Part shown: positions 1-58,209 of the stretch, piece by piece
Numbering within the stretch: the first letter of the stretch is position 1
How the letters are laid out: every line of letters begins with the position of its first letter
IMG/VR virus record: IMGVR_UViG_3300012274_000057
Span: 62,001-126,000 of that record
Strand: one strand, 5' to 3'
Length of the DNA stretch: 64,000 bases
DNA from: an uncultured virus (IMG/VR IMGVR_UViG_3300012274_000057)
Taxonomy: Duplodnaviria > Heunggongvirae > Uroviricota > Caudoviricetes
Made by a program: the position numbers and the translations under genes
The notes under the pieces: generated by a model
What the model was told of the DNA's origin: nothing
Databases searched by the model: none
The model's input: only the letters and a program-made list of their open reading frames with translations

Positions 1-71
1 TAATTAAATAATAATTAATAGACTATGTAACAGTATAATAATTTTAAATTTGTTAGGAGTTGTAAATAAAA

Positions 72-596
72 ATGATTTTAGGTGGAAAAGAAATAATTAA
101 AAGAGTAGAAAAGGGAGATATCTATATAGATAACTTTGATCCCGAGAAAGTAAATCCAAATAGCTATAATCTTACTTTAAATAATAAACTTCTAGTTTAT
201 ACTGGAGATGTCTTAGATATGAAATCTCCCAATAAATACAGAACAATAGAGATTCCAGAAGAGGGGTTAGTGCTTCAACCAGGAACATTATATTTGGCTA
301 GAACTAACGAAAGAACTATTACTGAAAAACTAGTACCAATGTTGGAAGGCAGATCTTCTATAGGAAGATTAGGAATGTCCATTCATGTAACAGCTGGATT
401 TGGCGATGTAGGATTTGATGGGTTTTGGACTTTAGAAATCTATTGTGTACAACCCTTAAAAATATATCCTAATGTAGAAATATGTCAAATATACTATCAT
501 ACAATTGATGGTGAATATGATAAATATAGAAGTGGTAAATATCAATTCAATGTAGATATTCAACCAAGTCTTTTATATAAAGATTTTCAAAAATAA
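72..596 (+). CDS. dcd: dCTP deaminase
   Basis: NPNSYNLTL, EGRSSIGRLG, AGFGDVGFDG and ICQI motifs; AGGAG RBS. Confidence 0.93.
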   Translation: MILGGKEIIKRVEKGDIYIDNFDPEKVNPNSYNLTLNNKLLVYTGDVLDMKSPNKYRTIEIPEEGLVLQPGTLYLARTNERTITEKLVPMLEGRSSIGRLGMSIHVTAGFGDVGFDGFWTLEIYCVQPLKIYPNVEICQIYYHTIDGEYDKYRSGKYQFNVDIQPSLLYKDFQK

Positions 597-22926: not shown

Positions 22927-25900
22927 TTATTCTATTGCTAATTTATTTAATATACTTAACAAAGAACTATCATCTAGTGTACCACCATTTGCTTTAGTAC
23001 TTTCATTAATTATATTTATCATAGAACGGGCATTTTTAGCATTTTTAGTAACTTTATCAGTTTGTTGTGAAACATCGACTCCTAATTTGCTACTCAATAT
23101 ACTAACAATTTGAGCCATACTTGCTGTATCACTAGTACTATTGTCAACAAGTTTACTTAATAACTGAATAATACTCATAAGTAAATTGTTATAACTAGAG
23201 GATTCCCCACCTTTATTATTTCTAATTCTTGCTTGGTCTTTCTCTCTAATTCTATTTGCACCTGCCTTTGTTTCTATTCTATGATATTCGTACTCTTCAT
23301 CTCTTGGTAATAAATCTCTAGGAGGTTGTTTCATTCTGTTGTCTGCCCCATAATTGTCTACACCACTTGATGCTGAAGCATTTCTTCTCTGATTTATTTC
23401 ATTCACAGAAGTTTGAACTGAAGAATTTTTATAAATCTTAGATAGATATTGGTTAGGTTCATACCTAGTAGACCAATCACCATTTTTCCTAATTTCATAG
23501 TGTAAGTGAGGTCCAGTAGATCTACCTGTGCTACCAACTTTACCCACAGATTGTCCAACAGAAACTCTACTTCCTACTGATAATGGGCTTCTATTTTGCA
23601 TATGTCCAAATATATGGTCTGCACCATTATTATCTGTAATAGCTACATAATTTCCAAATCCAGCACCTTCAAATGTATTTTGGAACACTTTACCTGCAAT
23701 AGGAGATTTGATATCTTTTCCAAGTATTCCGCCAGCACTATAATCTATACCAGTGTGTTTAGCTTGTTGTCCTGTTATAGGATCTACTCTGTCTGCATAT
23801 GGAGATGTAACAGTAGCTCCTAAAGTATCTAAATACCATTTATCGGAAATTTTAGCTGCTGATGTATCCAAAGAACCAGTGCCTCCATCAACACCTGCTA
23901 CTGAAGCTGAAGATTCATCAGAATTTTCGAATCCAAATAATCTATTAAATGCGTTTGAGCCTGCACTTGCTAAATCACTAAAGAAATTCCAAATAGATGG
24001 TTTTTCTGCTTCTGCTGTTCCTGCTTCGCCTTCTTCCCCATTTGCTGAATAACTTCCCGATGCTGATAATTTACCAGAATTTCCATTACCAGCTCCTGGA
24101 GTGTCCATCATAATAGAACTTATTCCACTTATCCAACTTTCACTAGGTTTACCGTTATTATCAACTGCATAAGTATGTCCAGGTTTTCCATATTGCATTA
24201 AATGTAAACTATCTTGACCTCCATCTACAAAGTTTTCTTTAATCCATTTAGCTCCAGCAATAATTCCATCTCTAGGCGTACTAAATGATTTAGCACTTGA
24301 ATAAGGACTATCGTTAAATGCAGCTATACCAAAGAAGTTATTTTTATCACGAACTATTTGGGATGTTCCCCAACCAGATTCCCACGCTGCATGTGCAGCA
24401 ATATATCTAGGATCTAATCCAGTAATTCTTCCAGCTTCGATAAATGCCGCTCCTTGTCCTCGCATTAATCCTTTATTTCCACTTGGTTTAGATGCTATCC
24501 AAGAGTTTAATTGATCAGCAGTAACACTAGGACCTAAAGAAGAAGTTACTTTATAGTTTCTTATATTAGATTTATTTATAGTTTGTGAAGCTCCACCGCT
24601 AGCACTGTTACCTGAAGAACTCATACCGTCTATAATCGAACTAGAGCCTCCCATACCTAATGACATAACTTTAGGTTTATAATTAGCTCCACTGTATATA
24701 GCAGTTTTTACATTACTATTTATAGGTTCATATTGTCCTCCTCTAACGCCATGCTTTTGTCTTCTACTCTCAGCTGTATAATTTCTATTAGTCCATCTTG
24801 ATGAATTAGAGTAAGAGGATGATTTAACTGAACTATTATTATATCCACTACTTTTATTCTTACTGTTTGTAGTCGCACCAGATTTACTTGGTGTATTTCC
24901 TTTAAATACAGATTGAACTTTATTAGAAACTTTCTTGAAGAAACCTACATCACCTTTAACTTCTGTATTATATTCTTTTACACTATAATCTGTACCATTC
25001 TTTTTATTATATTCGCTTACAGTTTTATCAGCTTCGTCCCTGAGTTTCTGTATATTACTATCTTCTTCTCCAAATATAGGTAATATAAAGTCAAAGAATA
25101 AATTAGCCCAAGTGCTTTCTGGAATAAATGATGTGACTATAAATAAACCACTTAGAGCCTTGAGTAATCCACAACATACCTTTTGTCCAAAAGTAGGTTC
25201 TTCTATGATACCTAATGTAGTCTTAGCATCATTAAATCCAGATATAAAATCTGCAGCAGCAAATGCTATATTAAGTAACCCTCCTGTAGATACTAGAGCA
25301 CCAACTTTAACTGCTAATTTTCCACCAGCTTTAGCTAAACTTTCAGATGCTTCTTTTAATAATTTAGGTATAAAAGTTTCAATTATAGTATCTGCTTTTT
25401 TACCTATAATACTTCTTACAGTTACATTATTAAGAAGTTTTTCCATCGTACCTTGTAATGTATTTAATGCAGCTTTTATTAATTGATTATCAGATGTAAT
25501 CGCATTCAATGCTTTACCAGCAATATTATCAGCATTTGAGGCAAGTTTTTTAGTTATTCCTCCAGATATATCAGAAATAGATCTTTTACCTATCTTTAAA
25601 ACATCATCTATTTTATTATACTGTTTTCCTATTCCCTCTGCAGTTTCTGTTATAGCAGTTCCTGCAGTCTTAGTAGTAGACCATATACTTTTACTAGTAT
25701 ATTTTAAAGATTTAAATGCTTTAGGTTTGAATGAACCATTTAATCCAGGTATCATTTGCCTTGCAGCTTTAAGACCATATTTTCCTGAATTTTTTGCACC
25801 TTGAAGTAATCCTACGCCACCCTTAAGTTTTGGTAGGAATTTAGCCGATGTTTTTCCTCCAGTAATTAAATGTCTAAATATTCCTTTACCAACTCTTCCA

Positions 25901-28900
25901 GCAATGTTTTCACTATTAATGCTTTTTACTTCAGCTTGTGCTGGAATTTGTTCTATATCCACTGGCTCATATAATCCATCTACCAATATATACATTTGAC
26001 CATTTTCATCTTGAACATATTCTCCTGTAGGAGGTAATTCAACCTGAGGTTGCTGAACATTTGTTGGCAAAGATTGCTGTTGTTCATCTATTACAGGAGT
26101 AGTTGCCATAGAATAATTGTTATATGATGAAGGATCATTATATATATTTTGTACAGCAGAGTCACTTACTCCAGAGATTTCTGAACTTATGTCGTATCCT
26201 GCAATGCTTCCTGTGGAGACAGATTCATCTTCTTTTTTACTAAATAAACTAAACTTAGATTTTTTCTTTTCTTGTTGTATCGGAGCCGTATTATTATATG
26301 ATGTTCCATTAGCTTGATTAGTGAAATAATCTTCATAATTGTTATAGTCGGTGTTTTGTGAGTCTTTTTTTCCAGTTACACCACCTACTATTTTACCATT
26401 AACAATTTTTTGTCCAGCTGCTAATTGTTTTACATTGGTATCATTTTTAACAGTGGTTGGATCTTTAAACCAATTTATTGCACTCTTAGCAACTTCTACT
26501 ACACCCTCTCCTAATGATGCAACTATTTTTCCACTATTTTTAACTAATTCTGGTAATAAATCTGTAATAGCCCATCCTAATGCTGTTCCTAATAATTTTC
26601 CGAGTTCAGGTATTAATTTAACTACACCATCAATTATATATGGAACAACTGATGACATACCTTCTGTTATTTTTGGTAATATAGATTGGAATGCACCTAC
26701 TAATGTAGGGAGTCCTTTGTCAAATACCCATTTTAAACCATCTGTTATAGCTGGTACAACTTTATCAGTTACAAATGGAATTGCGGTGTCATTTATCCAT
26801 GGTTTAACATGTTCTTCCCATGTCTGTCCAAGCATTGGAGTAACATTACCATTTATAAGACCTAATAACTTAGAGCCTAAGAACATCCCTGCTACTAATT
26901 TAGCTCCTGTTCCTAAAATACTCTTTCCAGAAAAGAAACCTTTTATTCCTCCGCCTACTCCACCTAAGAAGTTTTTTATTTTTCCAAAGAAACCAGTTTC
27001 CTCTTCTTCATCTTCGTCTTTCTTTTTAAATTTAGAAAAGAATTTAGCCATAAATCCTGTATTTTCAGCTGATTGTTCAGCAGTTTCTTTTTCAGCATTG
27101 GCTTCTTTAATAGCTTGTCTTGTAGATCTATCAGTCTTATCTACCTCTAAACCGTCTCTGCCTTTCTTTAATTTAATCTCATTACCGAATTTATCTACGA
27201 TAACTTTAGAAGCTTGTTTATCAGGATTAGCAATAACCTCTAAAGATGCATTAGCCATAGATAATAAGTCTACGATTTTATTATGTCTCTTCTCTGTTGC
27301 CATTTCTTGACTTTTAGCTATTCTTTCTGCTTCGGTTGTAGTATCCATCTTATTTCTGAAATCTTTTTCTTTTCCAAATAATCCTAAATATTTTTTGGCA
27401 TTGGTTTCATCAAAATCTTTAAATCCTAATCGTCTAAGTCTTTTAGCTGTATCAGATTTAATTTTTGATACACCTTCTTTACTAGCATCAACCTGTTCAT
27501 ATTCTTTATATTTTATATCTAAATAACTAACAAGTTCATCTTGTTGTTCTGCTGTAAGTCCTGATTTTTTACTATAAATATAATCTACAGCAGATTGGTA
27601 ATCCATGTTTGTTACAGCCTTCATTACTTTTTTAGCCTTATTATAATGCATGTCCTGAGAAACTCTAGCACCCATGTCATTAGTTAATTCCTTACGTTTA
27701 TTAGAAAGCTTATCTTTGACATTAACAAATTCATCTAACTGTCCATATATTTCATCTATTTGTTCTGGTGATAATCCTTCCATAAAAGAATCCAATTGTC
27801 TAAATTTATCCCTACCAAATACGCCCATTGAATTTACACCTTTTTTACGTCTAAATTCATTTCTTTCCTTAGCAGACATATAATCAGCATTACCTTCTCT
27901 AATTTGTTTTTTTCTATAATGTGTACCAATGGCACCTACTAATTTAAATGGAGTAGCAGCTACAGCTTTAACTGGGAACATTACAGTTTTAAATATAGTT
28001 TTAAATATATTACTTGCTGGTGTTAGAATTTTATCTTCTAAGAATTTGTGCAATGGTATCCCTAAACTAGATTCAAACATTTTATTTAGGAAACCTCCAA
28101 TTTTATCAAACATACCTTTCATCATTAATTCTACCTGTTTTTTTAATGGCTCGAATGCTTCTTTTAAAGGTTTAAGCATGTGTTCTTGAACAAAATCAAA
28201 CACATTATTCTTCATAGTACCCATGAACTTTTTAAGAGGATCTACGACTACTTTTCTAGCTGCAGGTAAGAACCCACCTTCATATTCACCAGTTTTTTCA
28301 TTATATTTTCCTAATATCATTTCTTTAAACTTATCTGTACTTGCTAATAATCCTACTCCAGAACCTAATAATGCATTTCCTAGCAATCCAAATGGACCTG
28401 CAATCATAGCAGCAGCTGCTCCTACTCCCATCTTAGGAAGTGCTTTATTCAGTTTTTGTTTAAATTCAGGTTTAAACAAGCCTTCTTCTCCAAATAAACT
28501 TTTTTGAACTGAATCATTATTCTTAGCAAATGCAACAGCAGAACCTAGCATTAATCCACCAACTGGTCCAAAAGGTATAAATGGTATTAATCCTGATACT
28601 CCACCTACTATTCCATAAGTTTTTAAATCTGGTGCATATTTATCAATAGAACCCATTAGCTTTTTATTAACTAATCCACCTTTACGTCCATCTTCGGTCA
28701 TTTCTCCAAATAACCAATTTTGAACCTTCTCACTATTTTTGGCTAAAGATATTCCAGCACCAACAGCAGCTCCTACTAAAGGACCTCCTATAGCACCTGT
28801 TAATATAGATACACCACCACCTAATAACCCAGTTGCTATCATACCAGGAGCATATTGAGATACATTTCCCATTACATCATCTAAAGCTTCTCCAAAGTTT

Positions 28901-31900
28901 TTCTTTTCCTGAGAAGATGACTTTCCAAATAAAGATTCTTTGGTTATACTAAATGCAGATTTCGTCTCTTCAAGCATCTGTTTGATTAATGGTTGAGTCT
29001 CTAAGAATATAGCCTTCTTTACAGGGTCTACAGGCATTCCATTATTATCCACTTCACCATAATTTAATTTTTCAGACTCTACTTTACCAATTATTTTATT
29101 TAATTGTTCAGGATGAGCAGATTTTAATATATTCATAAAATCTTCAGCATTCATATTCCCAAATTCTCTTTGAAGATATTGTGGTGAATTTTTTCTCATA
29201 CTTCCATATGCAGAACGCAATGATTTATCAGCTAAATTTAAATCCTTTTCACCTTTAACTAATTCAGTTAACTCAGTCAAAGCATTTATAAGTTTATCCT
29301 TATCCTCTACAGATAATACCATTTCGCCTTTAGATAAAGATGCTATTTGAGTCTTATCTACAGATTTACCTCCCGTACCTTCAGCATATTTAGGTAGACT
29401 TCCAAACATAAAGTTCGCTATATGATTTGATAATTGATTTGAAAGATCTGTATATGCTTGACCTTCAGGATGCTTCATTATATTAGGATTTAATCCAACT
29501 ATAGGAGTTTTAGAACTTGTCATTGAATTAGCAAATAAAAGGTTTCTTATATCATGAATATCACTACTTATTGATTTAAATATATTCGCTGTAGGTAATA
29601 CAGATTTCATACTTGTTGTATTTTCTGCAGAATCTTGTAACAACTTCTTTCTATTTAATTTAGAGCCTCTGAATATATTTGAATATCTTAATCGAGAACT
29701 TCTCCGTTCACCCTCACTTTCACCAGAAGGTATTGTATTTTCAGATGACATTTTTGAAACAAAGTTACCAGTTACAATATCATTCATAGTTGCTGTAGGG
29801 GCTATTGATGCTAATTCAGCTAAAGTCATATCGTATTCATTTTCTTGTAATAAGAATTGTGGAGCTAACCTTTTTTTATTAGCCATCTTATCTTTTATTT
29901 TTCCTACTAAAGGTCCAAAGGCATCTTTAAACGCATCTTTAATAGTATCTCCAGCCGATTTAAAGGTATTTTTTATTTCTTCATTTATTTTACTAAATAT
30001 TCCTTTTTCATTCTCATCTCCAACTAGGAAAGTTTTTAACTTTTTGCTTAATTCATCAACATCTAAACCGAACATACCGAAAAACTTCTTACCTACATCT
30101 TTAAAATTTTCTACATTAAGTTTATCTTTTACAGGATTTAATATAGTTTCATCTAACCAATTGTTAAATTTGCTAAATGTTTGATTTAAATTATATGTCA
30201 ATGAATCTATAAATCCCATGTGTTTATTCTCTTCAGGTTTGCCATAAATAGCTTCATACAGTTTTTGATCAACCTTATCAAGTGTTCTAGCAAAGAATTC
30301 TACTGGTTTCTTACTTATTTGATCCATTTGATCTATAAATACTTTAGTTTTCTCAGATAAATTAGTCGCATTTAATAATTTATCTATTAAACTAACAGAT
30401 TTATTTTCTTTTTCTTTTAATTTAGAATTTATATTTCTAACCTCTAGCATATTGTCTAATGATGATACTACATCATCACTGTCCATATTTGAGTAATCAA
30501 CATATCCCAGTCTACTTTTTTCCATCCTAGATTTTTGTTCCCTTAAAAATCTCTCGTTATCTCTTTGATATTGTTCTCTTTGTTTAATATCATTAGTTTT
30601 ATTATTTGCATTAGAACTCGGTATTTGAATAGAGTTGAAATCTAATATTTCTCCATTGCCTCCAAACATTATTCCAGCTTGTCTTATATAAGTAAGCTCT
30701 TTATACATATTTTGAAGATAGAAAAATATATTACGCCCTTTATCATCTATCGATTTTAATATAGAATTACTGGATAGACCTGTAACTATTTGATCTTTTT
30801 CTTTATTATTGAAGCCAAAATTATTAAATAGATGTCTATACATGGAATCAGATTGTTCTATATCTTTTATAGCAGCATCTTCTCTTTCACGTCCTTGCAT
30901 TATACTAGTATTTATTCCATGTTTCATATGCCTAGGAGCATTTTTAAACATACCTCTAATATATTGATAATTTTTTGTACTTACTCCATATTTAATTGCT
31001 TCAGAAGTCCAGTCATCACTCTTAGCATTTATATTAAATAACTCCTGGTTATTATATAAGTAAGAGAGAATAGTATCTATATCTTTCTCTAATTCATCCC
31101 TATCTTTTTTAGATTCAAAAGCAATTGCTTTCATATATTCTAGGAACTGATCTTTCATCTCTGAAGTAGAATCTTTGGCAAAGTTATCTCTCATTTTTCT
31201 ATATTCTTGACTCAGAATGTTACTGCTTACGAATTTACCAGATTTATAATCAAATATTTGAGGGGCTTGACCAGATAATAATGAAATTATTTTACTCATT
31301 TGCATAGGTAACACTTCAGTTAAGGCTTTACGAGATATTCCATCCCAATCTACCTTTCCTTTATTATATAATCCAGTATCTGCTTCACCCTTAACATTAT
31401 TTCTAATTCCTAATATTCTTCCTATTGCAGACGCAATCATATTATCGTCATTAGCCATAGAATTAAATTTAGTCATTAATGAACCAAAGAACCCATTTAT
31501 AGATTTATCTAAGTTGGCAGCTGATTTTTCTATAACCTTAGGTGTAAGTTTATTTATAATGGCATTAGGAATAAACTTTAATGGAGACGATGCAAATGCT
31601 AAAAGTAAATTACTATCCTCTCCAAACATATCGTTCATAGAACTAACTGCACCTAATTCGCCAGATAGATTTCTTTTTACCTGGGTCGCATATTTTTTTA
31701 TATCAAACCCTCCAAGAGATATATCCGAATAAGAAAGTGACTTACTACCTCCACTTTCTTTTTTCTGTTGTTCATTATCATTTTTAGTCATAGATTCAGC
31801 TATTTGTCTTAAAAGTGCTACTTGATCTTGCTGTAATTTAACTGACTCTTCATAAAATATTTTTGAGTTAGATGCATGAGATTGTATAGTGCTTGTAGAG

Positions 31901-32508
31901 AATTGTAATAGATTAGCTATATTATTATTAATAGAAAATAAATTACTATTAAACTTATTAAATGCTCTTATATTTTGAGTATATAAGATATTCGTATTAG
32001 ATTTTTGATTTTCTACTATATATTCTCCTGTTTTTACTAATGCCATAGAAACTGCATCAGCTGAAGACCTTGATGATTCGCCTATCATACTTGCTATAGC
32101 TTTTTCGCCACTAGTTATATCAGTATTATCATCAAAAACACCAAAATCTGAGTCACCATCATTAAAATCAGATTCAAAGTCCCAATCGTCTCCATCTAAA
32201 CCCATAACTTTTCTATCTAATTCGTCTTCTCGTTGTTTATTATAGAATTTACCAGATTTTATATCTTCTATAATTGAAGTTTTTAATTGATCCCCAGCTT
32301 CATATATTTTAGAACCTGCAAATACAGATTTTGCTCTGAGGAATGTTCCTCTATAGTCTCTAATAGAATGATGAACATCTTTAAATAATTCTGCATTGGT
32401 TTCTACGAACTCTGCCGTAGAAGGCGTCATCTTTTTTATTTTATCCACTGCTGAATAGCTTACAGACTTTCCTAAGTTGCTTATATATCCCGCTATATTA
32501 GTTGCCAT
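22927..32508 (-). CDS. tape-measure-like tail protein with C-terminal GH73 glucosaminidase and M23 peptidase domains
   Basis: 3193 aa; YAEGT...LSKGEMV motif, Gly-rich hydrophobic helices, AAWESGWG..NNFFGI (GH73), HTGID...GH...STGPHLHYE (M23). Confidence 0.85.
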   Translation of the reverse strand: MATNIAGYISNLGKSVSYSAVDKIKKMTPSTAEFVETNAELFKDVHHSIRDYRGTFLRAKSVFAGSKIYEAGDQLKTSIIEDIKSGKFYNKQREDELDRKVMGLDGDDWDFESDFNDGDSDFGVFDDNTDITSGEKAIASMIGESSRSSADAVSMALVKTGEYIVENQKSNTNILYTQNIRAFNKFNSNLFSINNNIANLLQFSTSTIQSHASNSKIFYEESVKLQQDQVALLRQIAESMTKNDNEQQKKESGGSKSLSYSDISLGGFDIKKYATQVKRNLSGELGAVSSMNDMFGEDSNLLLAFASSPLKFIPNAIINKLTPKVIEKSAANLDKSINGFFGSLMTKFNSMANDDNMIASAIGRILGIRNNVKGEADTGLYNKGKVDWDGISRKALTEVLPMQMSKIISLLSGQAPQIFDYKSGKFVSSNILSQEYRKMRDNFAKDSTSEMKDQFLEYMKAIAFESKKDRDELEKDIDTILSYLYNNQELFNINAKSDDWTSEAIKYGVSTKNYQYIRGMFKNAPRHMKHGINTSIMQGREREDAAIKDIEQSDSMYRHLFNNFGFNNKEKDQIVTGLSSNSILKSIDDKGRNIFFYLQNMYKELTYIRQAGIMFGGNGEILDFNSIQIPSSNANNKTNDIKQREQYQRDNERFLREQKSRMEKSRLGYVDYSNMDSDDVVSSLDNMLEVRNINSKLKEKENKSVSLIDKLLNATNLSEKTKVFIDQMDQISKKPVEFFARTLDKVDQKLYEAIYGKPEENKHMGFIDSLTYNLNQTFSKFNNWLDETILNPVKDKLNVENFKDVGKKFFGMFGLDVDELSKKLKTFLVGDENEKGIFSKINEEIKNTFKSAGDTIKDAFKDAFGPLVGKIKDKMANKKRLAPQFLLQENEYDMTLAELASIAPTATMNDIVTGNFVSKMSSENTIPSGESEGERRSSRLRYSNIFRGSKLNRKKLLQDSAENTTSMKSVLPTANIFKSISSDIHDIRNLLFANSMTSSKTPIVGLNPNIMKHPEGQAYTDLSNQLSNHIANFMFGSLPKYAEGTGGKSVDKTQIASLSKGEMVLSVEDKDKLINALTELTELVKGEKDLNLADKSLRSAYGSMRKNSPQYLQREFGNMNAEDFMNILKSAHPEQLNKIIGKVESEKLNYGEVDNNGMPVDPVKKAIFLETQPLIKQMLEETKSAFSITKESLFGKSSSQEKKNFGEALDDVMGNVSQYAPGMIATGLLGGGVSILTGAIGGPLVGAAVGAGISLAKNSEKVQNWLFGEMTEDGRKGGLVNKKLMGSIDKYAPDLKTYGIVGGVSGLIPFIPFGPVGGLMLGSAVAFAKNNDSVQKSLFGEEGLFKPEFKQKLNKALPKMGVGAAAAMIAGPFGLLGNALLGSGVGLLASTDKFKEMILGKYNEKTGEYEGGFLPAARKVVVDPLKKFMGTMKNNVFDFVQEHMLKPLKEAFEPLKKQVELMMKGMFDKIGGFLNKMFESSLGIPLHKFLEDKILTPASNIFKTIFKTVMFPVKAVAATPFKLVGAIGTHYRKKQIREGNADYMSAKERNEFRRKKGVNSMGVFGRDKFRQLDSFMEGLSPEQIDEIYGQLDEFVNVKDKLSNKRKELTNDMGARVSQDMHYNKAKKVMKAVTNMDYQSAVDYIYSKKSGLTAEQQDELVSYLDIKYKEYEQVDASKEGVSKIKSDTAKRLRRLGFKDFDETNAKKYLGLFGKEKDFRNKMDTTTEAERIAKSQEMATEKRHNKIVDLLSMANASLEVIANPDKQASKVIVDKFGNEIKLKKGRDGLEVDKTDRSTRQAIKEANAEKETAEQSAENTGFMAKFFSKFKKKDEDEEEETGFFGKIKNFLGGVGGGIKGFFSGKSILGTGAKLVAGMFLGSKLLGLINGNVTPMLGQTWEEHVKPWINDTAIPFVTDKVVPAITDGLKWVFDKGLPTLVGAFQSILPKITEGMSSVVPYIIDGVVKLIPELGKLLGTALGWAITDLLPELVKNSGKIVASLGEGVVEVAKSAINWFKDPTTVKNDTNVKQLAAGQKIVNGKIVGGVTGKKDSQNTDYNNYEDYFTNQANGTSYNNTAPIQQEKKKSKFSLFSKKEDESVSTGSIAGYDISSEISGVSDSAVQNIYNDPSSYNNYSMATTPVIDEQQQSLPTNVQQPQVELPPTGEYVQDENGQMYILVDGLYEPVDIEQIPAQAEVKSINSENIAGRVGKGIFRHLITGGKTSAKFLPKLKGGVGLLQGAKNSGKYGLKAARQMIPGLNGSFKPKAFKSLKYTSKSIWSTTKTAGTAITETAEGIGKQYNKIDDVLKIGKRSISDISGGITKKLASNADNIAGKALNAITSDNQLIKAALNTLQGTMEKLLNNVTVRSIIGKKADTIIETFIPKLLKEASESLAKAGGKLAVKVGALVSTGGLLNIAFAAADFISGFNDAKTTLGIIEEPTFGQKVCCGLLKALSGLFIVTSFIPESTWANLFFDFILPIFGEEDSNIQKLRDEADKTVSEYNKKNGTDYSVKEYNTEVKGDVGFFKKVSNKVQSVFKGNTPSKSGATTNSKNKSSGYNNSSVKSSSYSNSSRWTNRNYTAESRRQKHGVRGGQYEPINSNVKTAIYSGANYKPKVMSLGMGGSSSIIDGMSSSGNSASGGASQTINKSNIRNYKVTSSLGPSVTADQLNSWIASKPSGNKGLMRGQGAAFIEAGRITGLDPRYIAAHAAWESGWGTSQIVRDKNNFFGIAAFNDSPYSSAKSFSTPRDGIIAGAKWIKENFVDGGQDSLHLMQYGKPGHTYAVDNNGKPSESWISGISSIMMDTPGAGNGNSGKLSASGSYSANGEEGEAGTAEAEKPSIWNFFSDLASAGSNAFNRLFGFENSDESSASVAGVDGGTGSLDTSAAKISDKWYLDTLGATVTSPYADRVDPITGQQAKHTGIDYSAGGILGKDIKSPIAGKVFQNTFEGAGFGNYVAITDNNGADHIFGHMQNRSPLSVGSRVSVGQSVGKVGSTGRSTGPHLHYEIRKNGDWSTRYEPNQYLSKIYKNSSVQTSVNEINQRRNASASSGVDNYGADNRMKQPPRDLLPRDEEYEYHRIETKAGANRIREKDQARIRNNKGGESSSYNNLLMSIIQLLSKLVDNSTSDTASMAQIVSILSSKLGVDVSQQTDKVTKNAKNARSMINIINESTKANGGTLDDSSLLSILNKLAIE

Positions 32509-32612
32509 AATTGTGACCTCCTTTACTATTTAATTATATTTATGTTAAGGAGACAAAAAACAAAGGTATGAGTATTTAAACTCATACCTTTATTAAAAAT
32601 TTATTATTATAA

Positions 32613-38672: not shown

Positions 38673-38774
38673 ATTAATCCATCCTCTCAAAATAAGTTTT
38701 ATAATTTTATATTAAATAAAGATAACTTATAACTTTATTCTATTAATATAATATATAACTTATTTTATTAACTT

Positions 38775-40082
38775 TTACATATCTTCTTCTATAGTATACT
38801 CTTCTAGTACTTCATCCACAGATTCTTCTTCTGGATTTTGAATATTATAGTATACAGGTTCTAAATAACTGATCATTTCTTTTATAGGCATTTCCGAAAT
38901 GTTTATAAAATCATCCCTCAGTGATAATGCTAATATCCTTACCTCTGCCTGTGCTGCACTATCAGTTCTGAGTTCTAAAAACTTAATGAAACTTTTAAAT
39001 GTAAATGTCATATATAAAGATGTAGTGCTATTATTAGGCAAATATGCTCTTGCATCTTCTTTTAATAATGCCTTATTTTCTGTTAATTGAGGATATATAT
39101 TCATCATAATATCACCCAATTCTTGAAGCGTAAACATTTTGTATGATTTAGCAGAAGTGCCTGGGATATCAAAAGATATTTTATATTTCTTTGTGTTATC
39201 ATATTTCTCAGGTTTAAATTTACCAGGTGAATTAAATTTAAATTCACCTGAAGAATAATCTACATATCTTTGTGATAATTGAGTTATTCCAACCCTGTGT
39301 CTTGTTAATTGTTGAGATATTATTCTAGATACATCTTTTATTAAAATAGTAATTGAACACATGCTAAGAATATCCCTTTTTGTGAATATATCTGGAATTA
39401 CATCTCTTATTTTATATAACGGATCAGCATTCAATATATTATAACTATCTCTTATTAATGGTTCAAATCTTTGGGTTATACCTAATTCTCTCTCCGAAGG
39501 TTCTATAGAAATTTTACTTTGTAATTCCCCTTCATTTAGTATCCAATCATCTGGTTCTGTATCCAATGGAAATTTCCTCTGATCCATTATACCAGCTTCT
39601 ATAAAGTCGATAAAATAACAACTACTTGTACCATATAATAAATTTAATATTTCCCTGGATATTTTATTTTCTGCGTTCTGTATTTCCCTAAAGATATGTT
39701 TGTATGCCCTAATACTCCCTCCTATTAAAAGATATCCTATACCGTCTTTTTCCTTATATTTAGTTTCCAGATATCTGCATACATCTAATACTTCAACTAA
39801 ATCTTCAGACATATCTTTAGAAAATTCCAATAGCATAACAATATTAGAATGTTCTAGAATAGATTCATGTCCTGATTTTAATCTAGTAGCTATATATTTA
39901 GCTTTATTTTCATAAGTGTCTTTATTATCCTTATTATAACATATTTTGCATGCATCATGTACTAAATTTACATGATCATTCATATGTATAATAGCACCTT
40001 TTACTATTCCTGTTAGTTTACTCTCCTCTTTATTTTTATTAAAAATCCTATTAAATATTGCTTTGATATTATTTTTATTCAT
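38775..40082 (-). CDS. thyX: FAD-dependent thymidylate synthase, extended/tandem-domain form
   Basis: GHESILEH, SRIISQQLTRHR..SQRY, EDARAYLPN, FLELRT..AAQAEVR; start moved to ATG 40082 behind GGAGG. Confidence 0.88.
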   Translation of the reverse strand: MNKNNIKAIFNRIFNKNKEESKLTGIVKGAIIHMNDHVNLVHDACKICYNKDNKDTYENKAKYIATRLKSGHESILEHSNIVMLLEFSKDMSEDLVEVLDVCRYLETKYKEKDGIGYLLIGGSIRAYKHIFREIQNAENKISREILNLLYGTSSCYFIDFIEAGIMDQRKFPLDTEPDDWILNEGELQSKISIEPSERELGITQRFEPLIRDSYNILNADPLYKIRDVIPDIFTKRDILSMCSITILIKDVSRIISQQLTRHRVGITQLSQRYVDYSSGEFKFNSPGKFKPEKYDNTKKYKISFDIPGTSAKSYKMFTLQELGDIMMNIYPQLTENKALLKEDARAYLPNNSTTSLYMTFTFKSFIKFLELRTDSAAQAEVRILALSLRDDFINISEMPIKEMISYLEPVYYNIQNPEEESVDEVLEEYTIEEDM

Positions 40083-40132
40083 TATCCTTACCTCCAAATT
40101 ATTTATATTTATTATAAAGTTACATAGACAGT

Positions 40133-40238: not shown

Positions 40239-41048
40239 TTATTTAAATATGTTATTATATTCACATATTGTTAAAATGTCATTAAAAATTTCTTCTTCTG
40301 TTCTAATACTATTATTATCAGTACATTTTACTACTTCATAACCCATAATATCTATTACTGTTTTTGAACTTTCCTCTACTAATTTCATAAAATTATAATT
40401 ATTTTCATGTTCATCTTTCTTACCATTAGTTTTCAATTTTCTTTTTTGCATCAATTCATAAGAGATGTCTATAGGCATATCCATAAATATACATAAATCT
40501 TCTTTTGGAAGGTCTAAGTGGAAATATTCAACCTTACAAATATTTTGAATAAAATCATGTTCATTATACTCCTTCTTGAAGATATTATAATCCATTTTAT
40601 AATATTTATCATACTCTGGTACTTTTTCATAATCTAATTTATAAAGATCAGTCTCTATACCATATAGCATTCGTCTATAATTATAAACATGTTTTGCTAT
40701 TTCTTTAACTTTTGCAGTCTGAAATGTTAAATTTGAACCTATATACCTATCAAATATAATATACCATCCTTTTTCTAATAATTTATTTATTTCTAATTTA
40801 ATTATAGAGTCCATTCTGTCTAAAGAATAGCAGTATGAAGCTTTATATGGATCAATATAAGATGCATTTCCATATGCCCCTGCTAAATACTCTTTTATAA
40901 AAAATGAAGATGGTGAATGATAATTTGGAAATGAAAAATGTAATACTTTATTAGTTATATTACTATTTATATAGTGTTCTAATTTAATTGAATTTGTTTC
41001 TTTGAAGGAATAATCTAATCCCTCGAATACTATTAATTTACCTTTCAT
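40239..41048 (-). CDS. tmk: thymidylate (dNMP) kinase
   Basis: GKLIVFEGLDYSFKETN (variant P-loop), FSFPNY, IIFDRY motifs. Confidence 0.85.
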   Translation of the reverse strand: MKGKLIVFEGLDYSFKETNSIKLEHYINSNITNKVLHFSFPNYHSPSSFFIKEYLAGAYGNASYIDPYKASYCYSLDRMDSIIKLEINKLLEKGWYIIFDRYIGSNLTFQTAKVKEIAKHVYNYRRMLYGIETDLYKLDYEKVPEYDKYYKMDYNIFKKEYNEHDFIQNICKVEYFHLDLPKEDLCIFMDMPIDISYELMQKRKLKTNGKKDEHENNYNFMKLVEESSKTVIDIMGYEVVKCTDNNSIRTEEEIFNDILTICEYNNIFK

Positions 41049-44202: not shown

Positions 44203-44700
44203 TTAAAAATAAAATTTACCTTTATCTCTCATTAAATTTAATTTATTTATATATTTAACACTATGACTATATTGTCTTTGCAGTAGTTTTAATTCGCCTT
44301 TAATTTGATTATAATAAACCCTCATATCTTTTCTACTACCTTTAGGTAATGAATTTAATATTTTATATATTTCAAATTCATTTATCATTTTTTCTTTTAT
44401 TAATATAGCCTTTATTTTTGCTTGTTCTTTCTGAATTAAAACTGTATAAGTTAAGAAATATAAAATATTTGCTATTTCGTCTTTTACAAATATTTTATAT
44501 TTAATCATAAAAATTTGTTTCTTTCTATTTTTACACCATACAATAATATAATTTCCTTTTTCATTATACTCATAATGAATAGCATTTTTTGAATGATGTT
44601 TATCATTCAAATCTATCCAGAATGTTTTTACGATATGTGGTTTATAATTTTGTAAAGTATCAAATAATACTTTAAAATCAGATATGTTTCCATCAACCAT
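44203..44700 (-). CDS. hypothetical basic protein
   Basis: AAGGAGA RBS. Confidence 0.7.
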   Translation of the reverse strand: MVDGNISDFKVLFDTLQNYKPHIVKTFWIDLNDKHHSKNAIHYEYNEKGNYIIVWCKNRKKQIFMIKYKIFVKDEIANILYFLTYTVLIQKEQAKIKAILIKEKMINEFEIYKILNSLPKGSRKDMRVYYNQIKGELKLLQRQYSHSVKYINKLNLMRDKGKFYF

Positions 44701-44775
44701 AATTAATTTCTCCTTTTTTATTTTTAAAAATATATTAGAAGATTAGAAATAAATCTAATCTTCTTTTTAAATAAA

Positions 44776-44912
44776 TTAAAATCTCACGAAGTGAGATTTA
44801 TCAGCCTCCCCTTCATGTCTTCTAAAACATGAATAATTTACATTTATATTGTATTTATAATAATGAATTATAAATTAATTCAATGTTTTATACTTTGTAA
44901 AAATGTACAAGC
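44776..44912 (-). repeat. left copy of ~135-bp inverted repeat
   Basis: Reverse complement aligns with 46492-46625. Confidence 0.9.
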
Positions 44913-44916
44913 TCCC

Positions 44917-45708
44917 TTATTTATAAAAGTCCATAGAGAAGACATAGCAATCTTCTCTATCTACAAGAACATAATCGTTCATAGATATCAGTACTCTATT
45001 TTCGCCAAATAATAACTTACGTATTATATTATTTAATATTTGGCTATTAGTATTAAATTCACCATGAAGTTTTAAATACTCAAATGTATTTGGTTCTATA
45101 TTGCTTTTTATTATTATATTAAACGATTCTTTCATAGCAGTTATAGCATCATCATCTGTAAATAATAAATCAGTAACCTTTCTAATATAAAAGTTTTCAA
45201 TAGTTTCTTCCTCATATATAATTGTATCTATATCTAATTTAGTCATAGGTTTTTTTATGTATAACCTATCTGAATCCATTAATGTCGTTAAAAGATTAGT
45301 ATTATCATCCATATATTTTAATGCTAAATTATATGCTATATTTTTTATATCTGCATTATTTTTTTGTCTATCATATTTATAATTTAAAAAGTATAATCCA
45401 GATATAATCTCGTTTATTATAATTGATTTAATTAAAATCATTTTTTCATATTCGCTATGAATATTATGTGCATGATCAATAATATTATTTATATCTATCA
45501 CCATAGTATTTACAAATATACATGATAAATTTTTACACATATCATAATCTTTTTCATTAAATAATAGCTGTATTGGAATTGCTATATTTAATTCGTCCTT
45601 CACTGTTCTAAATACCTTTTGTGCTAATATTTTTAAATTGAACATAATATCCTCGTTCAATTTAAGTCTAGTTGCCTTTTCATGCTTAAGTTTAATAATG
45701 TTATTCAT
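44917..45708 (-). CDS. hypothetical early protein, possibly a degenerate zincin-like paralog of 45863-46483
   Basis: GAGGGGG RBS; early-motif variant 45750-45759; IIINEIIS in place of HExxH. Confidence 0.7.
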   Translation of the reverse strand: MNNIIKLKHEKATRLKLNEDIMFNLKILAQKVFRTVKDELNIAIPIQLLFNEKDYDMCKNLSCIFVNTMVIDINNIIDHAHNIHSEYEKMILIKSIIINEIISGLYFLNYKYDRQKNNADIKNIAYNLALKYMDDNTNLLTTLMDSDRLYIKKPMTKLDIDTIIYEEETIENFYIRKVTDLLFTDDDAITAMKESFNIIIKSNIEPNTFEYLKLHGEFNTNSQILNNIIRKLLFGENRVLISMNDYVLVDREDCYVFSMDFYK

Positions 45709-45862
45709 TTGTAATCCCCCTCAAAAATATATTTTTTTTATTCAATATTATAATATATCATTGTATTATACTTTACCATTTTTTCTATGTTCCTGGAAAA
45801 ATGGCTATAATTATATATTATAGTAATGAATAAATATAGAAAATATTAAAGGAGAGATTAAT

Positions 45863-46483
45863 ATGAATAAATTAATAGTAGATCCAAATAACTATAGTAT
45901 AGTATCAATTTCAAATGAGACATCCTTTGAAGAAACAGAGACTGATAAACTATGTAGACATATACTAGGTTTATTTAGTGATCTTAAAGATTTAGAGATA
46001 GAAATTGATGTGGATAAATATAACAATTTTGAAGCATGTTTTCGTACAGAAAAAATAAACAATAAAAAAAGACAATATAAATATATTATAAATCTTAGAC
46101 CATTTCAAGACTGTTTTAAAAAGGGAAGCATTTGTAGAAATAGTAGAGAAATTATAGAAGGTTTGGAGATAGATGAACTTTTAAGAATAAATAGTATTGA
46201 TGAAAAATATAAATTTAAAGTTTACTATTTATTTTATATATTACATGAAATTGGACATATTAAGCATTTTAATATAAATGAACGATATATCAATAAATTA
46301 AAATTGGCAGATGTGTCTCTAGATTGTTCATTGCGTCAAACTTATTATAATGCTAATAAGAAACATTCTTATACGATATATCAATATGGATTATTCGAAT
46401 CCCAAGCAAATTTATTTGCATTTAAATATTTCACATATATTTGGAATAATGTATTAAAAAATACAAATTTTCTTAATATGTAA
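45863..46483 (+). CDS. HExxH zinc metallopeptidase-like protein (ImmA/IrrE-like)
   Basis: ILHEIGH and downstream FESQANLFA; early motif 45812-45821. Confidence 0.7.
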   Translation: MNKLIVDPNNYSIVSISNETSFEETETDKLCRHILGLFSDLKDLEIEIDVDKYNNFEACFRTEKINNKKRQYKYIINLRPFQDCFKKGSICRNSREIIEGLEIDELLRINSIDEKYKFKVYYLFYILHEIGHIKHFNINERYINKLKLADVSLDCSLRQTYYNANKKHSYTIYQYGLFESQANLFAFKYFTYIWNNVLKNTNFLNM

Positions 46484-46491
46484 AAATATAG

Positions 46492-46625
46492 GCTTGTACA
46501 TTTTTACAAAGTACAAAACATTTAAATATTTATATTTAAATTATATAAATTTAATATATAAAAATATTCATGTTTCTACAATACATGATGAGAGGATTGT
46601 CAAATCTCACTTCGTGAGATTTTAA
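46492..46625 (+). repeat. right copy of ~135-bp inverted repeat
   Basis: gcttgtacatttttacaaagta.aaaacatt ... tattcatgttt...acatga ... aaatctcacttcgtgagattttaa. Confidence 0.9.
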
Positions 46626-46639
46626 AGGAGGAATAAAAA

Positions 46640-46816
46640 ATGAAAGATTCTAAAATAAATCTAAATAATAAGTGGTTTACTATAGAACGAGATCATTACA
46701 AATGTAAATTATGTAAATTCTATTATAAAATATACAATGAAACTGAACCCAGTAAATGTCCTAATTGTAATCATAGTACTAAAGATGAACAAAAGAATAT
46801 CAATAAAAATAAATAA
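46640..46816 (+). CDS. 58-aa zinc-ribbon/rubredoxin-like protein, not in ORF track
   Basis: Hand translation ...YKCKLCKFYYKIYNETEPSKCPNCN...; AAGGAGG RBS; terminator 46825-46857. Confidence 0.8.
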   Translation: MKDSKINLNNKWFTIERDHYKCKLCKFYYKIYNETEPSKCPNCNHSTKDEQKNINKNK

Positions 46817-46907
46817 TATATTAAATAAACTAGGGAAACAATCTCTAGTTTATTTTTTGTGTATTTACATAAGATAACATTCATATAATTATGAAAGGAG
46901 TGATACT

Positions 46908-53525: not shown

Positions 53526-54863
53526 ATGGCAAGAGTAGATTTATTAAGTGTATTATATTCTAAAGAAAAATCACCATTAGAATTTAAATTCGATTCAATG
53601 TGGATGCCATCAATGTATAATTATCTTACGCAACAGGATATACAAGCATTGTATAATATAGCATCCTCTATTAGATATAGTTCTAAGATAGAATTAAAAT
53701 ATAAACTCATAGATGATATTATGACAGTAAGAGGATTTAAGAAATTTGCCTCTGGAACTAATAGGGTAGTTTATAGTTATTTAGAAGACCAATCATTTTT
53801 AGTAAAAATAGCAATAGATAGAGTTGGTCTTGGAGATAATCCAGCAGAATATAAAAATCAATTTTTATTAAAACCTTTTGTATCTAAAATGTTTGAATGT
53901 AGTCCATGTGGGACTGTAGCATTTGTAGAAAGATTAGAGCCCATAACATCTAGACAAGAATTTTTATCTATAGGCGAAGATATATTTAATTTATTAAATG
54001 AATTTATTATAGGTAAATATGTATTAGAAGATATAGGAAGTAAATATTTTATGAACTATGGATTGCGTAAAGGATTTGGTGTATGCCTCTTAGACTATCC
54101 TTATGTGTATGAATTGGATGGAAATAAACTGTATTGTAATAAGCAAGAACTTGAAACAAAGAATCTTTGTGGAGGAGAAATAGATTATGATGCAGGATTC
54201 AACAATTTAATATGTAGTAAGTGTGGCAAAAGATTCAAAGCCAAAGATTTACAACAGTCTGTTCAAAATAAATTAATTTTATTAAAAAATGAAGGAGAGA
54301 TTGATATGAAAATTAAAGTTAGTTATCGTGGAGAAGTAATAAGAGAATTTAATTCATCTGATGAAAGTGATGTTATTGTTAGAAAGCAAAAACAGCAATC
54401 ACAACCAACAATGAATGTAAAAGTAAATGGAGTTCCGATAGGGGGTCCAAAAACTCCGATTAACAATGTAAGAGAGTCTGCTTTTATCAATAAAAATAGA
54501 CACGATATAAAGGGAGATAAAAAAAGATATGCAGAAATGGGAAACGCTAAATCAGTTCAAAAAGATAATACACAAGAAATAAAAAATCAAGTATCCCAGG
54601 CAGATTCTAAACCTGAAACTATAGAAAAAACAGATAATATATATACTATTGCGGTCAAATCTGAATCTCTTAAAGTTCCTACAATAGATGCAGCAACTTT
54701 AAATTCTATAGGATTATCAGATAAAGATTTTGAAGAAGAGGACTCATCGAATAAAGAAGAAGATAAAGACTTAGCAGCTAAATATTACGATGAGTATAAA
54801 GATTTTGAAGAAGAGGATAATTTTCAAAAAATTAAAAAGAATAAAATTATAGATAGATATTAA
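53526..54863 (+). CDS. protein-kinase-like domain + Zn ribbon + low-complexity tail
   Basis: ASGTNRVVY (Gly loop), LVKIA, AEY, EDIG...NYG, LLDY; C..CGG and CSKCG cysteines. Confidence 0.6.
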   Translation: MARVDLLSVLYSKEKSPLEFKFDSMWMPSMYNYLTQQDIQALYNIASSIRYSSKIELKYKLIDDIMTVRGFKKFASGTNRVVYSYLEDQSFLVKIAIDRVGLGDNPAEYKNQFLLKPFVSKMFECSPCGTVAFVERLEPITSRQEFLSIGEDIFNLLNEFIIGKYVLEDIGSKYFMNYGLRKGFGVCLLDYPYVYELDGNKLYCNKQELETKNLCGGEIDYDAGFNNLICSKCGKRFKAKDLQQSVQNKLILLKNEGEIDMKIKVSYRGEVIREFNSSDESDVIVRKQKQQSQPTMNVKVNGVPIGGPKTPINNVRESAFINKNRHDIKGDKKRYAEMGNAKSVQKDNTQEIKNQVSQADSKPETIEKTDNIYTIAVKSESLKVPTIDAATLNSIGLSDKDFEEEDSSNKEEDKDLAAKYYDEYKDFEEEDNFQKIKKNKIIDRY

Positions 54864-54876
54864 TGGGGGGATCATT

Positions 54877-55539
54877 ATGTTATTCAATGGATCTATCTTT
54901 GTAACGACAGATTTAAATGTTGTTAGAAATAATTTTACAACAAGTAAAGTCGTTGTAATTGGAGATAATCAGCCAAGCAACCAAGAATTAGTAACATCGG
55001 TTGGTGGAGTATTAGCAAGTGTATTGCTACCTCCATATCAATCTATGGAAGCATATTTAGATAATAGAAAAGAAGATTTTATAAATCTATACTATGCATA
55101 CTTATTTAGTCGAGAAACATTGGCATTATTAGCAGCTCTGGTGAGAGCTATAATGAATGGTACAAACATTCTTATCTATATTAATGCGGATGAATATAAT
55201 ATGTATTTTGAAGCATTGTATAATTTTATAGCAATAAATTTTGGAATATTTATTGGAACTGGAACAAACCAATTTGGATTTTCAAACAATCCAATTCACA
55301 TTAAATTTATTTGTGATACTTTATATTTAAATGAATTTTTAAGTATACCAGAATTATTTGCATTATATCCTGCAGATGCAGATTTTCTTCAAGAAGTTGT
55401 TGTTAAATTAATAAATGAGTTAAATCCATATGTTGCAGATACTTCTTTTGAAGGTTATTGTAATTATTTTAGAAACTATAGAAATCAAATGTTAGCGAAT
55501 AATGGTTCGTTCTTAAAACCATTGGTGCATAAATGTTAG
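54877..55539 (+). CDS. hypothetical protein
   Basis: GGGGGG RBS; operon. Confidence 0.75.
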   Translation: MLFNGSIFVTTDLNVVRNNFTTSKVVVIGDNQPSNQELVTSVGGVLASVLLPPYQSMEAYLDNRKEDFINLYYAYLFSRETLALLAALVRAIMNGTNILIYINADEYNMYFEALYNFIAINFGIFIGTGTNQFGFSNNPIHIKFICDTLYLNEFLSIPELFALYPADADFLQEVVVKLINELNPYVADTSFEGYCNYFRNYRNQMLANNGSFLKPLVHKC

Positions 55540-58036: not shown

Positions 58037-58209
58037 TTTAAAGACCTCCTCTTATTTGTTGTTATTTAGATGTTATTCTCCAATATTTGGCAATTATACA
58101 TAATTGTATATCTTTAGAATTTAAATTATATATTATAATAATGTAATAAAGTTTGTAAGTTCTTTATATAGAAATAAAAATATTAAACTTACAGAAGGGG
58201 TTAAATATA

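Follow-up and report, generated by a model that had tools for sequence, protein, structure and literature searches.

What are two structured repeats of about 135 bp, in inverted orientation on either side of a divergent gene pair, doing in a phage genome? The question is raised by a 64,000-nucleotide (nt) stretch of DNA from an uncultured Caudoviricetes virus (the window), which comprises bases 62001-126000 of G000, the 230,112-bp IMG/VR virus record IMGVR_UViG_3300012274_000057 of an AR9-like jumbo phage. A first-pass annotation had singled out a left copy (L) and a right copy (R) and had offered four explanations for them: a duplicated structured non-coding RNA or leader, an invertible cassette, an old inverted duplication, or an origin-like element. 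The analysis described here suggests that the repeats are probably lineage-specific cassettes that join a late promoter to a structured leader or small RNA and start a late transcription unit.

Four copies of one cassette

Both repeats lie where the first-pass annotation had placed them, and alignment and repeat search agree that they are homologous. The repeat search of the window recovered inverted arms at 44873-44912 and 46492-46531 (40 nt, 90% complementary) together with the hairpin pair at 44779-44799 and 46602-46622, and the 21-nt hairpin and a 22-nt inner block each occur at only two sites in the window, with 0 expected from 100 shuffles. Identity between L and R is 80.4% over 138 nt in a blastn local alignment and 68.8% over 144 columns in a seven-row MAFFT alignment; from the inside outward, a near-identical inner block is followed by an AT-rich middle that drifts with insertions and deletions, by hairpin 1 and by an identical hairpin 2.

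The BLASTN search for more copies that had been recommended confirmed the pair and also enlarged it: when G000 was searched with R, both window copies and two more (copies 3 and 4) were returned, four in the genome and not two, with three in direct orientation and one inverted. The bracket around a gene pair is incidental: the two additional copies are in direct orientation at distances of about 100 kb and 120 kb, and the bracketing effect arises only because L and R are both set to fire outward, away from two divergent early ORFan genes. Copy 3 is split by the ends of the record. In a close relative, the sequence is unbroken through this copy, and the ends of G000 overlap by 6 nt on that relative; G000 is therefore a closed or permuted assembly, broken inside a repeat.

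The same four copies, at the same spacing, are present in G001 (IMG/VR 3300013368_000005, 186,590 bp), which is collinear with G000 at all four loci and, being 97.6-100% identical to it there, adds little independent information. A covariance model built from the cassette was also run on four more distant relatives and found nothing credible; the four are G002 and G003 (each with 50% amino acid (aa) identity to the window's 270-aa protein), L078 (47% to the same protein) and G004 (58% in the RNA polymerase (RNAP) beta-like protein), and the best match among relatives, at E 0.12-0.17, lies antisense inside an early-promoter cassette. The GenBank phage collection gave no cassette match in either near or distant search mode, and 185,579 prokaryote genomes gave 0 matches for the conserved upstream block and 2 chance matches for the hairpin. 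Exact-pattern scans of viral contigs returned 51 and 7 stretches, the only real ones being four plus four from G001, and three hairpin matches in viral contigs belong to one GC-rich phage family and lie within gene context. The proposed Rfam comparison came back empty for the window at gathering score and gave no family match for the four loci, the sole match elsewhere being at chance level (E 2). In the genome itself, the palindrome of hairpin 2 occurs at no other place. The cassette is confined to one species-level clade, in which it forms three independent lineages (R with copy 3, L, and copy 4).

Anatomy of the cassette

The order of parts is alike in all four copies: a preceding terminator-like hairpin, a GCTTGTACATTTTTACA block, AACA-N6-TA, an A/T-only stretch, hairpin 1, a purine-rich linker and hairpin 2 (Table 1). 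Across the cassettes, the conserved block 5' of the promoter is 25-27 nt long. Both the outward-facing AACA-N6-TA motif and the TCATGT..ACATGA hairpin with differing loops, which had been described for L and R, are found in both of these copies. A further stem described there, TTGTAC..GTA(C/T)AA, fared less well: its variation between GTACAA and GTATAA is real, but it is excluded from a late RNA because it lies upstream of the predicted late start site. In the AT-rich spacer of R (~46560), G001 has 12 nt more than G000, and spacer length is therefore free to vary between strains.

Several other identities for parts of the cassette were considered and rejected. A mini-ORF (open reading frame) running from the ATG of hairpin 1 to the TGA of hairpin 2, 9-10 codons in all copies, has no Shine-Dalgarno sequence and an ATG whose position varies. 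The linker does not behave as a real ribosome-binding site (RBS), as the codon at the correct spacing is ATC in all copies and the downstream frames disagree. A hammerhead-like GATGAG is accompanied by core positions that disagree and by no Rfam match, and the cassette edges have neither the terminal inverted repeats nor the target duplications of a miniature inverted-repeat transposable element. Antisense targets, sought by linker complements and duplex energies against all 5' regions, amounted to self-matches and meaningless long AU duplexes.

A late-type promoter and the polymerase that may read it

In phage AR9, the late promoter is AACA-(6N)-TA/G with the last base as start, and it is read by the non-virion RNAP (PMC5312081). 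AACA-N6-TA is present in four of four copies of G000 and four of four of G001, with AACA and TA invariant and the N6 variable. Across G000 there are 293 such sites, 93 of them within the 8.1% of the genome that is intergenic, a figure that is the remainder of a crude ORF map. Among the 101 sites at intergenic edges, 86 lie less than 150 nt 5' of an ORF on the same strand; the gap to the start codon is mostly 16-33 nt genome-wide, and 66 sites have a gap of 10-40 nt. A weight matrix was trained on 66 gene-proximal late-type sites; it places the cassette promoters at ranks 63, 66, 67 and 101 of 2577 AACA sites, and they are ordinary members of the late-type class. The same matrix shows no base preference 5' of AACA; thus, the conserved upstream block is extra to the generic late promoter. 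The cassette leader, about 112 nt, also departs from the usual 16-33 nt. A host sigma70 promoter in the upstream block was considered and dismissed: sigma70-like sites are not enriched (27 found, 33.4 expected) and the spacing is unfit. The G+C content of the genome is 21-33%.

The window also encodes a 1501-aa protein with a weak Pfam match to Rpb2_6 (E 0.0094, below the cut-off). In tblastn searches, this protein is 27-35% identical to the RNAP beta of PBS1-group, Listeria, Staphylococcus and Fusobacterium jumbo phages, with its best matches in Listeria phage LPJP1, the PBS1 group and Staphylococcus jumbo phages; it may belong to a virion or to a non-virion RNAP.

Conservation and predicted RNA structure

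The three lineages are about equidistant, with 66-73% identity over the cassette columns. The "old inverted duplication" of the first-pass annotation holds to the extent that the copies are old paralogs, but clustered conservation argues against plain neutrality: invariant columns bunch in runs of 17-20, and the longest run was reached in only 8-21 of 20000 column shuffles.

The structure test covered the named 5' AU hairpin and hairpins 1 and 2 in a model-fitted alignment of seven copies, six of them distinct. Pairing is possible in 90.5% of cells, compared with 31-58% when the partners are slid by 1-3 columns, and three pairs are altered on both sides in a compensatory manner. The covariation score is 0.117 versus 0.048 in shuffles and was reached by one of 500 shuffles. 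In hairpin 1, R and L lengthen the outer stem and copy 4 lengthens the inner one, and at one position the three lineages show U.U, U.G and C-G. G.U states lie on the outward strand, and the single change in hairpin 2, in copy 4 of G000, is an outward-strand U.G. The hairpin evidence favours an outward-read RNA, though its points are few.

What flanks each copy

Ahead of copies 3 and 4, the terminator-like hairpin that precedes the cassette has the canonical form and a long T run; ahead of R it is weak. A scan for such hairpins found 5 sites in 2.9 kb, with 0.2 expected, and these include hairpins 2 and 3 of L. As the first-pass annotation had described, R runs into the RBS of a zinc-ribbon gene, which lies directly 3' of it, and a hairpin is found beyond L (Table 1). 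The gene after the R unit has an AACA-N6-TA promoter of its own at 46876. Hairpin 3, shared by L and copy 4, has the form AGAAGA(T/A)TAG..CTA(A/T)TCTTCT, in which a T-A pair is exchanged for A-T as a compensated change; in L, the RBS that comes next is that of a 165-aa ORF (44203-44700), the head of three genes without promoter words of their own. In copy 3, hairpin 2 is followed by a degenerate AAAGGATG and then by a hairpin with a T run, beyond which lies the separate late-type promoter of a 956-aa ORF, presumably ribonucleotide reductase as judged from its N-terminus. Copy 4 faces a convergent gene and has no downstream gene to read into.

Table 1. Positions of the cassettes, their parts and other mapped features (window coordinates unless G000 is given; starts, hairpins and promoters are predictions)
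Feature	Position	Strand	Remarks
R cassette	46492-46625	+	
R upstream block, GCTTGTACATTTTTACA and following bases	46492-46516	+	17 nt invariant in 7/7 full copies
R late-type promoter AACA-N6-TA	46517-46528	+	predicted start 46528 (final A), after the AR9 pattern
R AU-only hairpin	46529-46551	+	opens 1 nt past predicted start; 2 pairs with compensatory change
R hairpin 1, TCATGT..ACATGA	46568-46588	+	other lineages keep the stem by different pairs
R purine-rich linker	46589-46601	+	unpaired in predicted fold; fast-changing among copies and strains
R hairpin 2, AAATCTCAC-TTC-GTGAGATTT	46602-46622	+	A-tract/stem/T-tract shape; identical in 6/7 full copies
RBS AAAGGAGG	46624-46631	+	reached by the ~112-nt R leader
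58-aa CxxC..CxxC zinc-ribbon ORF	46640-46816	+	reached by the ~112-nt R leader
Strong terminator-like hairpin	46823-46855	+	closes the R unit
L cassette	44776-44912	-	
L upstream block	44912-44888	-	
L late-type promoter AACA-N6-TA	44887-44876	-	predicted start 44876
L AU hairpin	~44875-44853	-	
L hairpin 1	44833-44812	-	
L hairpin 2	44799-44779	-	
L third hairpin, AGAAGATTAGA..TCTAATCTTCT	44737-44764	-	terminator-like; common to copy 4
Terminator-like hairpin 5' of L	44933-44960	-	end of 263-aa early ORF; terminator scan
Copy 3, split by record ends	G000 230036-230112 plus 8-93	+	search with R
Copy 4	G000 209607-209740	+	search with R
Copy 4 hairpin 2	G000 209720-209740 (L005 1614-1634)		G001 counterpart L044
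Back-to-back early-type promoters	45743-45828	both	predicted to drive the two interior ORFs
Plus early promoter, TATATATTAT core	45812-45821	+	start G 45828
Minus early promoter, GATATATTAT	45759-45750	-	start G 45743; one mismatch to TATATATTAT
263-aa ORFan	44917-45708	-	no family; no homolog outside the lineage
206-aa HExxH ORFan	45863-46483	+	two distant homologs only
Shared early leader	38691-38774	-	
Shared early leader	58037-58209	+	
Shared early leader, further sites	G000 26010-26115, 32416-32569, 53621-53840, 130363-130524, 133416-133561		

Interior genes and surroundings

The assignment of promoters to the early type rests on the early promoter word of AR9 (PMC5312081). The back-to-back early promoters that had been proposed between the repeats were recovered, and their core, TATATATTAT, occurs 68 times in G000, about 40 of these as aatTATATATTATa-N4-tG upstream of genes. 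The HExxH protein that had been predicted is likewise present, its motif reading HEIGH in the 206-aa ORF; the suggested degenerate paralogy of the two interior proteins found no backing, as the best BLASTP match between the 263-aa and 206-aa proteins has E = 1.8. A word-indexed search found no homolog of either protein outside the lineage. A full HMMER search of 1.84 billion representatives gave the 206-aa protein two distant homologs (E 5e-9 and 8e-4), and weak Atlas leads, to be taken as leads only, point to an SprT-like or M78 peptidase.

All four copies lie beside lineage-specific genes. Only two of 11 proteins flanking the copies have a homolog in G002, and local synteny round the window locus differs in relatives. 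A scan of 20 window proteins, among them the ten ORFs between 40239 and 49377, found no recombinase family at the gathering cut-off, and the neighbouring proteins gave no DNA-binding family matches. Farther off in the window, a 3193-aa ORF (22927-32508, minus strand) has Peptidase_M23 and glucosaminidase domains near its C-terminus and is probably a giant virion-associated cell-wall hydrolase or tail protein.

Early promoters in this group of phages also come as repeated modules. In G000, 39 intergenic regions are tied together by early-promoter similarity, and at least seven of them have, behind the early-type promoter, a shared leader of about 60-70 nt whose 5' GTAAGT pairs with ACTTAC just before the RBS (sites in Table 1). 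With compensated variants of this pairing, GATAGT/ACTATC and ATAAGT/ACTTAT, it is a covarying structured early-mRNA leader family. In G002, seven tandem terminator/early-promoter/leader cassettes stand between small genes at 70723-79409, and a second early promoter-leader family lies in the direct terminal repeat (1-230, 55232-55437, 196401-196567 and 221892-222731). The four-copy cassette is the late-promoter counterpart of these repeated early promoter-leader modules.

Interpretation and alternatives

Among the four options of the first-pass annotation, a duplicated structured non-coding RNA or leader fits best, because the copies have an outward late-type promoter, kept hairpins, and an end in a terminator-like hairpin or an RBS. 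In the scheme that we regard as probable, each of the four paralogous cassettes, which sit just past the terminator-like hairpin of the preceding gene, would have its AACA-N6-TA read by the phage's predicted non-virion multisubunit RNAP. The transcript, of about 100 nt, would consist of a 5'-terminal AU hairpin, an AU-rich spacer, hairpin 1, the purine-rich linker and hairpin 2. R would then be the long leader of the zinc-ribbon mRNA, L would lead via its third hairpin into the promoter-less three-gene block, and copies 3 and 4, ending in terminator-like hairpins, would give stand-alone RNAs of about 100-150 nt; a stand-alone small RNA may be made at two or three of the four places. Activity of the promoter and a function of the hairpins at the RNA level are our inference; the role in RNA would most likely be protection of the 5' end, control of the transcript that lies behind, or partial termination at hairpin 2.

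A stronger version, in which the cassettes encode a family of late small RNAs that are made by a non-canonical RNAP and act in their own right, is unlikely. Such RNAs might act in cis in the manner of put, in which case the polymerase would read through the following hairpins and feed the three-gene block left of L; they might also act in trans or by binding a phage protein, for example the zinc-ribbon protein encoded behind R. If a cis or trans action of this kind were true, it would be the first RNA-based control element described for the non-virion RNAP of AR9-type phages.

A number of observations count against a leader or small RNA. Fold z-scores of single sequences are modest (-0.8 to -3.0), and the fold of the outward strand beats that of its complement in only five of seven copies, by at most 4.8 kcal/mol. 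The covariation comes from three lineages, very few events and a structure-fitted alignment, and those three lineages belong to one species-level clade, the four more distant relatives being without the cassette. Late-RNA structure cannot explain the most conserved block, because this lies upstream of the predicted start. The tails past hairpins 2 and 3 contain less T than the genome's usual terminators, and hairpin 2 is a perfect palindrome for which a DNA site for a dimeric protein is equally possible. Moreover, the copies appear to exchange sequence. R matches copy 3 at 100% identity over 77 nt, which indicates patchy gene conversion, and the two strains differ in hairpin 2 of copy 4, where G000 combines a GAA loop with a U.G pair and G001 a TTC loop with a perfect stem. 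The copy 4 locus is otherwise 98.4% identical between the two genomes, with neighbouring changes beside the flipped loop, which looks like a palindrome flip or a short conversion tract. Gene conversion among copies could mimic selective constraint.

A doubtful alternative is that the copies are a mobile cassette like the PeSLs (promoter-early stem-loop cassettes) of T4-type phages, moving along with accessory ORFan genes or recombining beside them, with no RNA function of its own, kept alike by conversion and with hairpins that serve as terminators only. Such a cassette would suit the lineage-specific genes beside all four copies, the interior ORFans, the scarcity of G002 homologs among the flanking proteins (two of 11) and the differing synteny in relatives; the identity of R with copy 3, the conversion-like patch in copy 4 between strains, the large early promoter-leader family of the genome and the tandem cassettes of G002 point the same way. 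However, the two collinear strains show no rearrangement at the cassettes, the copy number is only four, and hairpin 1 and the 5' AU hairpin keep their pairing through changes even though they are not terminator-shaped. Mobility and a late leader or small RNA are in any case compatible, and accepting one does not exclude the other.

Explanations at the level of DNA are weaker. It is very unlikely that the 17-nt block and the 9-3-9 palindrome act by binding a phage DNA-binding protein, such as a late-transcription regulator or, at a strand switch, a factor for replication or partition. Conservation is indeed highest in a block upstream of the start and in a perfect palindrome, the latter found at no other place in the genome, and a symmetric DNA site would tolerate the loop flip seen in one strain. 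Yet three of the four copies lie away from any strand switch, some 75-95 nt separate the promoter from the palindrome downstream of it, changes of the G.U type keep to one strand, and the neighbours, with no DNA-binding family matches, supplied no candidate binding protein. An origin-like element has nothing in its favour except the strand switch, which is accounted for by the divergent early promoters. As for an invertible segment, in which recombination between L and R would flip the 1.6-kb interior, it is suggested by inverted repeats with 30-40 nt of near identity flanking divergent promoters, but it is extremely improbable: G000 and G001 are collinear across the region and carry a single orientation, none of the 20 window proteins scanned reached the gathering cut-off of a recombinase family, inverting a symmetric divergent pair that lies between two similar cassettes would have little effect, and the two direct copies elsewhere would then give deletions. 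A late promoter with a structured leader or small RNA remains the reading that we prefer.

Comparison with known systems

The putL/putR sites of HK022 and nutL/nutR of lambda are promoter-proximal antiterminator RNAs. The cassette resembles them in its two hairpins just past outward promoters that flank a divergent control region and are followed by terminators, a layout that fits L, copy 3 and copy 4; it differs in having no sequence or Rfam match to them, in its predicted non-canonical phage RNAP, and in copy 4, which has no gene downstream. Firmicute mRNAs carry 5' stabiliser hairpins and Shine-Dalgarno-like stabilisers. The hairpin 1 nt from the predicted 5' end and an unpaired GGGGAGG stretch in L are reminiscent of both, whereas the Shine-Dalgarno-like stretch is not kept in copy 4.

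Short non-coding RNAs with their own promoters and terminators are known from jumbo phages, for example in the transcriptome of Pseudomonas phage 201phi2-1 (PMC11512511). Unlike these, the RNAs proposed here belong to another phage group and another promoter type, show no homology to them, and are predictions from sequence.

The closest concept is that of the PeSLs. These cassettes of T4-type phages combine a promoter with a stem-loop, occupy variable regions beside ORFans and have copies that are alike; their promoters are early, of sigma70 type and read by the host RNAP, and the cassettes are numerous, recombine and form mini-circles (PMC2839356, PMC4122927). Our cassette is likewise a small repeated composite of promoter and stem-loop beside variable or ORFan genes. 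In contrast, it exists in four copies, has a late-type AACA-N6-TA promoter for a predicted phage RNAP and a long structured transcribed part, and shows no cassette-bounded indel or exchange between G000 and G001, the one close relative compared.

The late units of AR9 share with the cassette the same motif in the same genome-wide placement near genes (PMC5312081), and early promoters of the AAATATATATTAT-(6N)-G type occur here too. The RNAP beta-like protein is most similar to proteins of the PBS1/AR9 group and of Listeria and Staphylococcus jumbo phages. Two differences stand out. Here the promoter belongs to a 135-nt repeated unit that also contributes an additional conserved upstream block and about 100 nt of structured leader, in place of the usual 16-33 nt. 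In addition, the window encodes ThyX (38775-40097, minus strand; Pfam Thy1, E 1.6e-34) and thymidylate kinase (40239-41048, minus strand; E 3.9e-13) alongside an AR9-type promoter word, and therefore the DNA of this phage need not contain uracil; the start sites here are predicted ones.

The practical weight of the cassette is modest, as it comes from one uncultured lineage. In AR9-type jumbo phages, late genes are transcribed by a polymerase that reads a very short promoter, and a cassette that adds a block and a long folded leader to this minimal promoter would offer a handle on how individual late units are tuned, with a defined DNA block and two hairpins available for mutation. It would also suggest that AR9-type phages, like those of the T4 type, spread ready-made control cassettes beside new genes.

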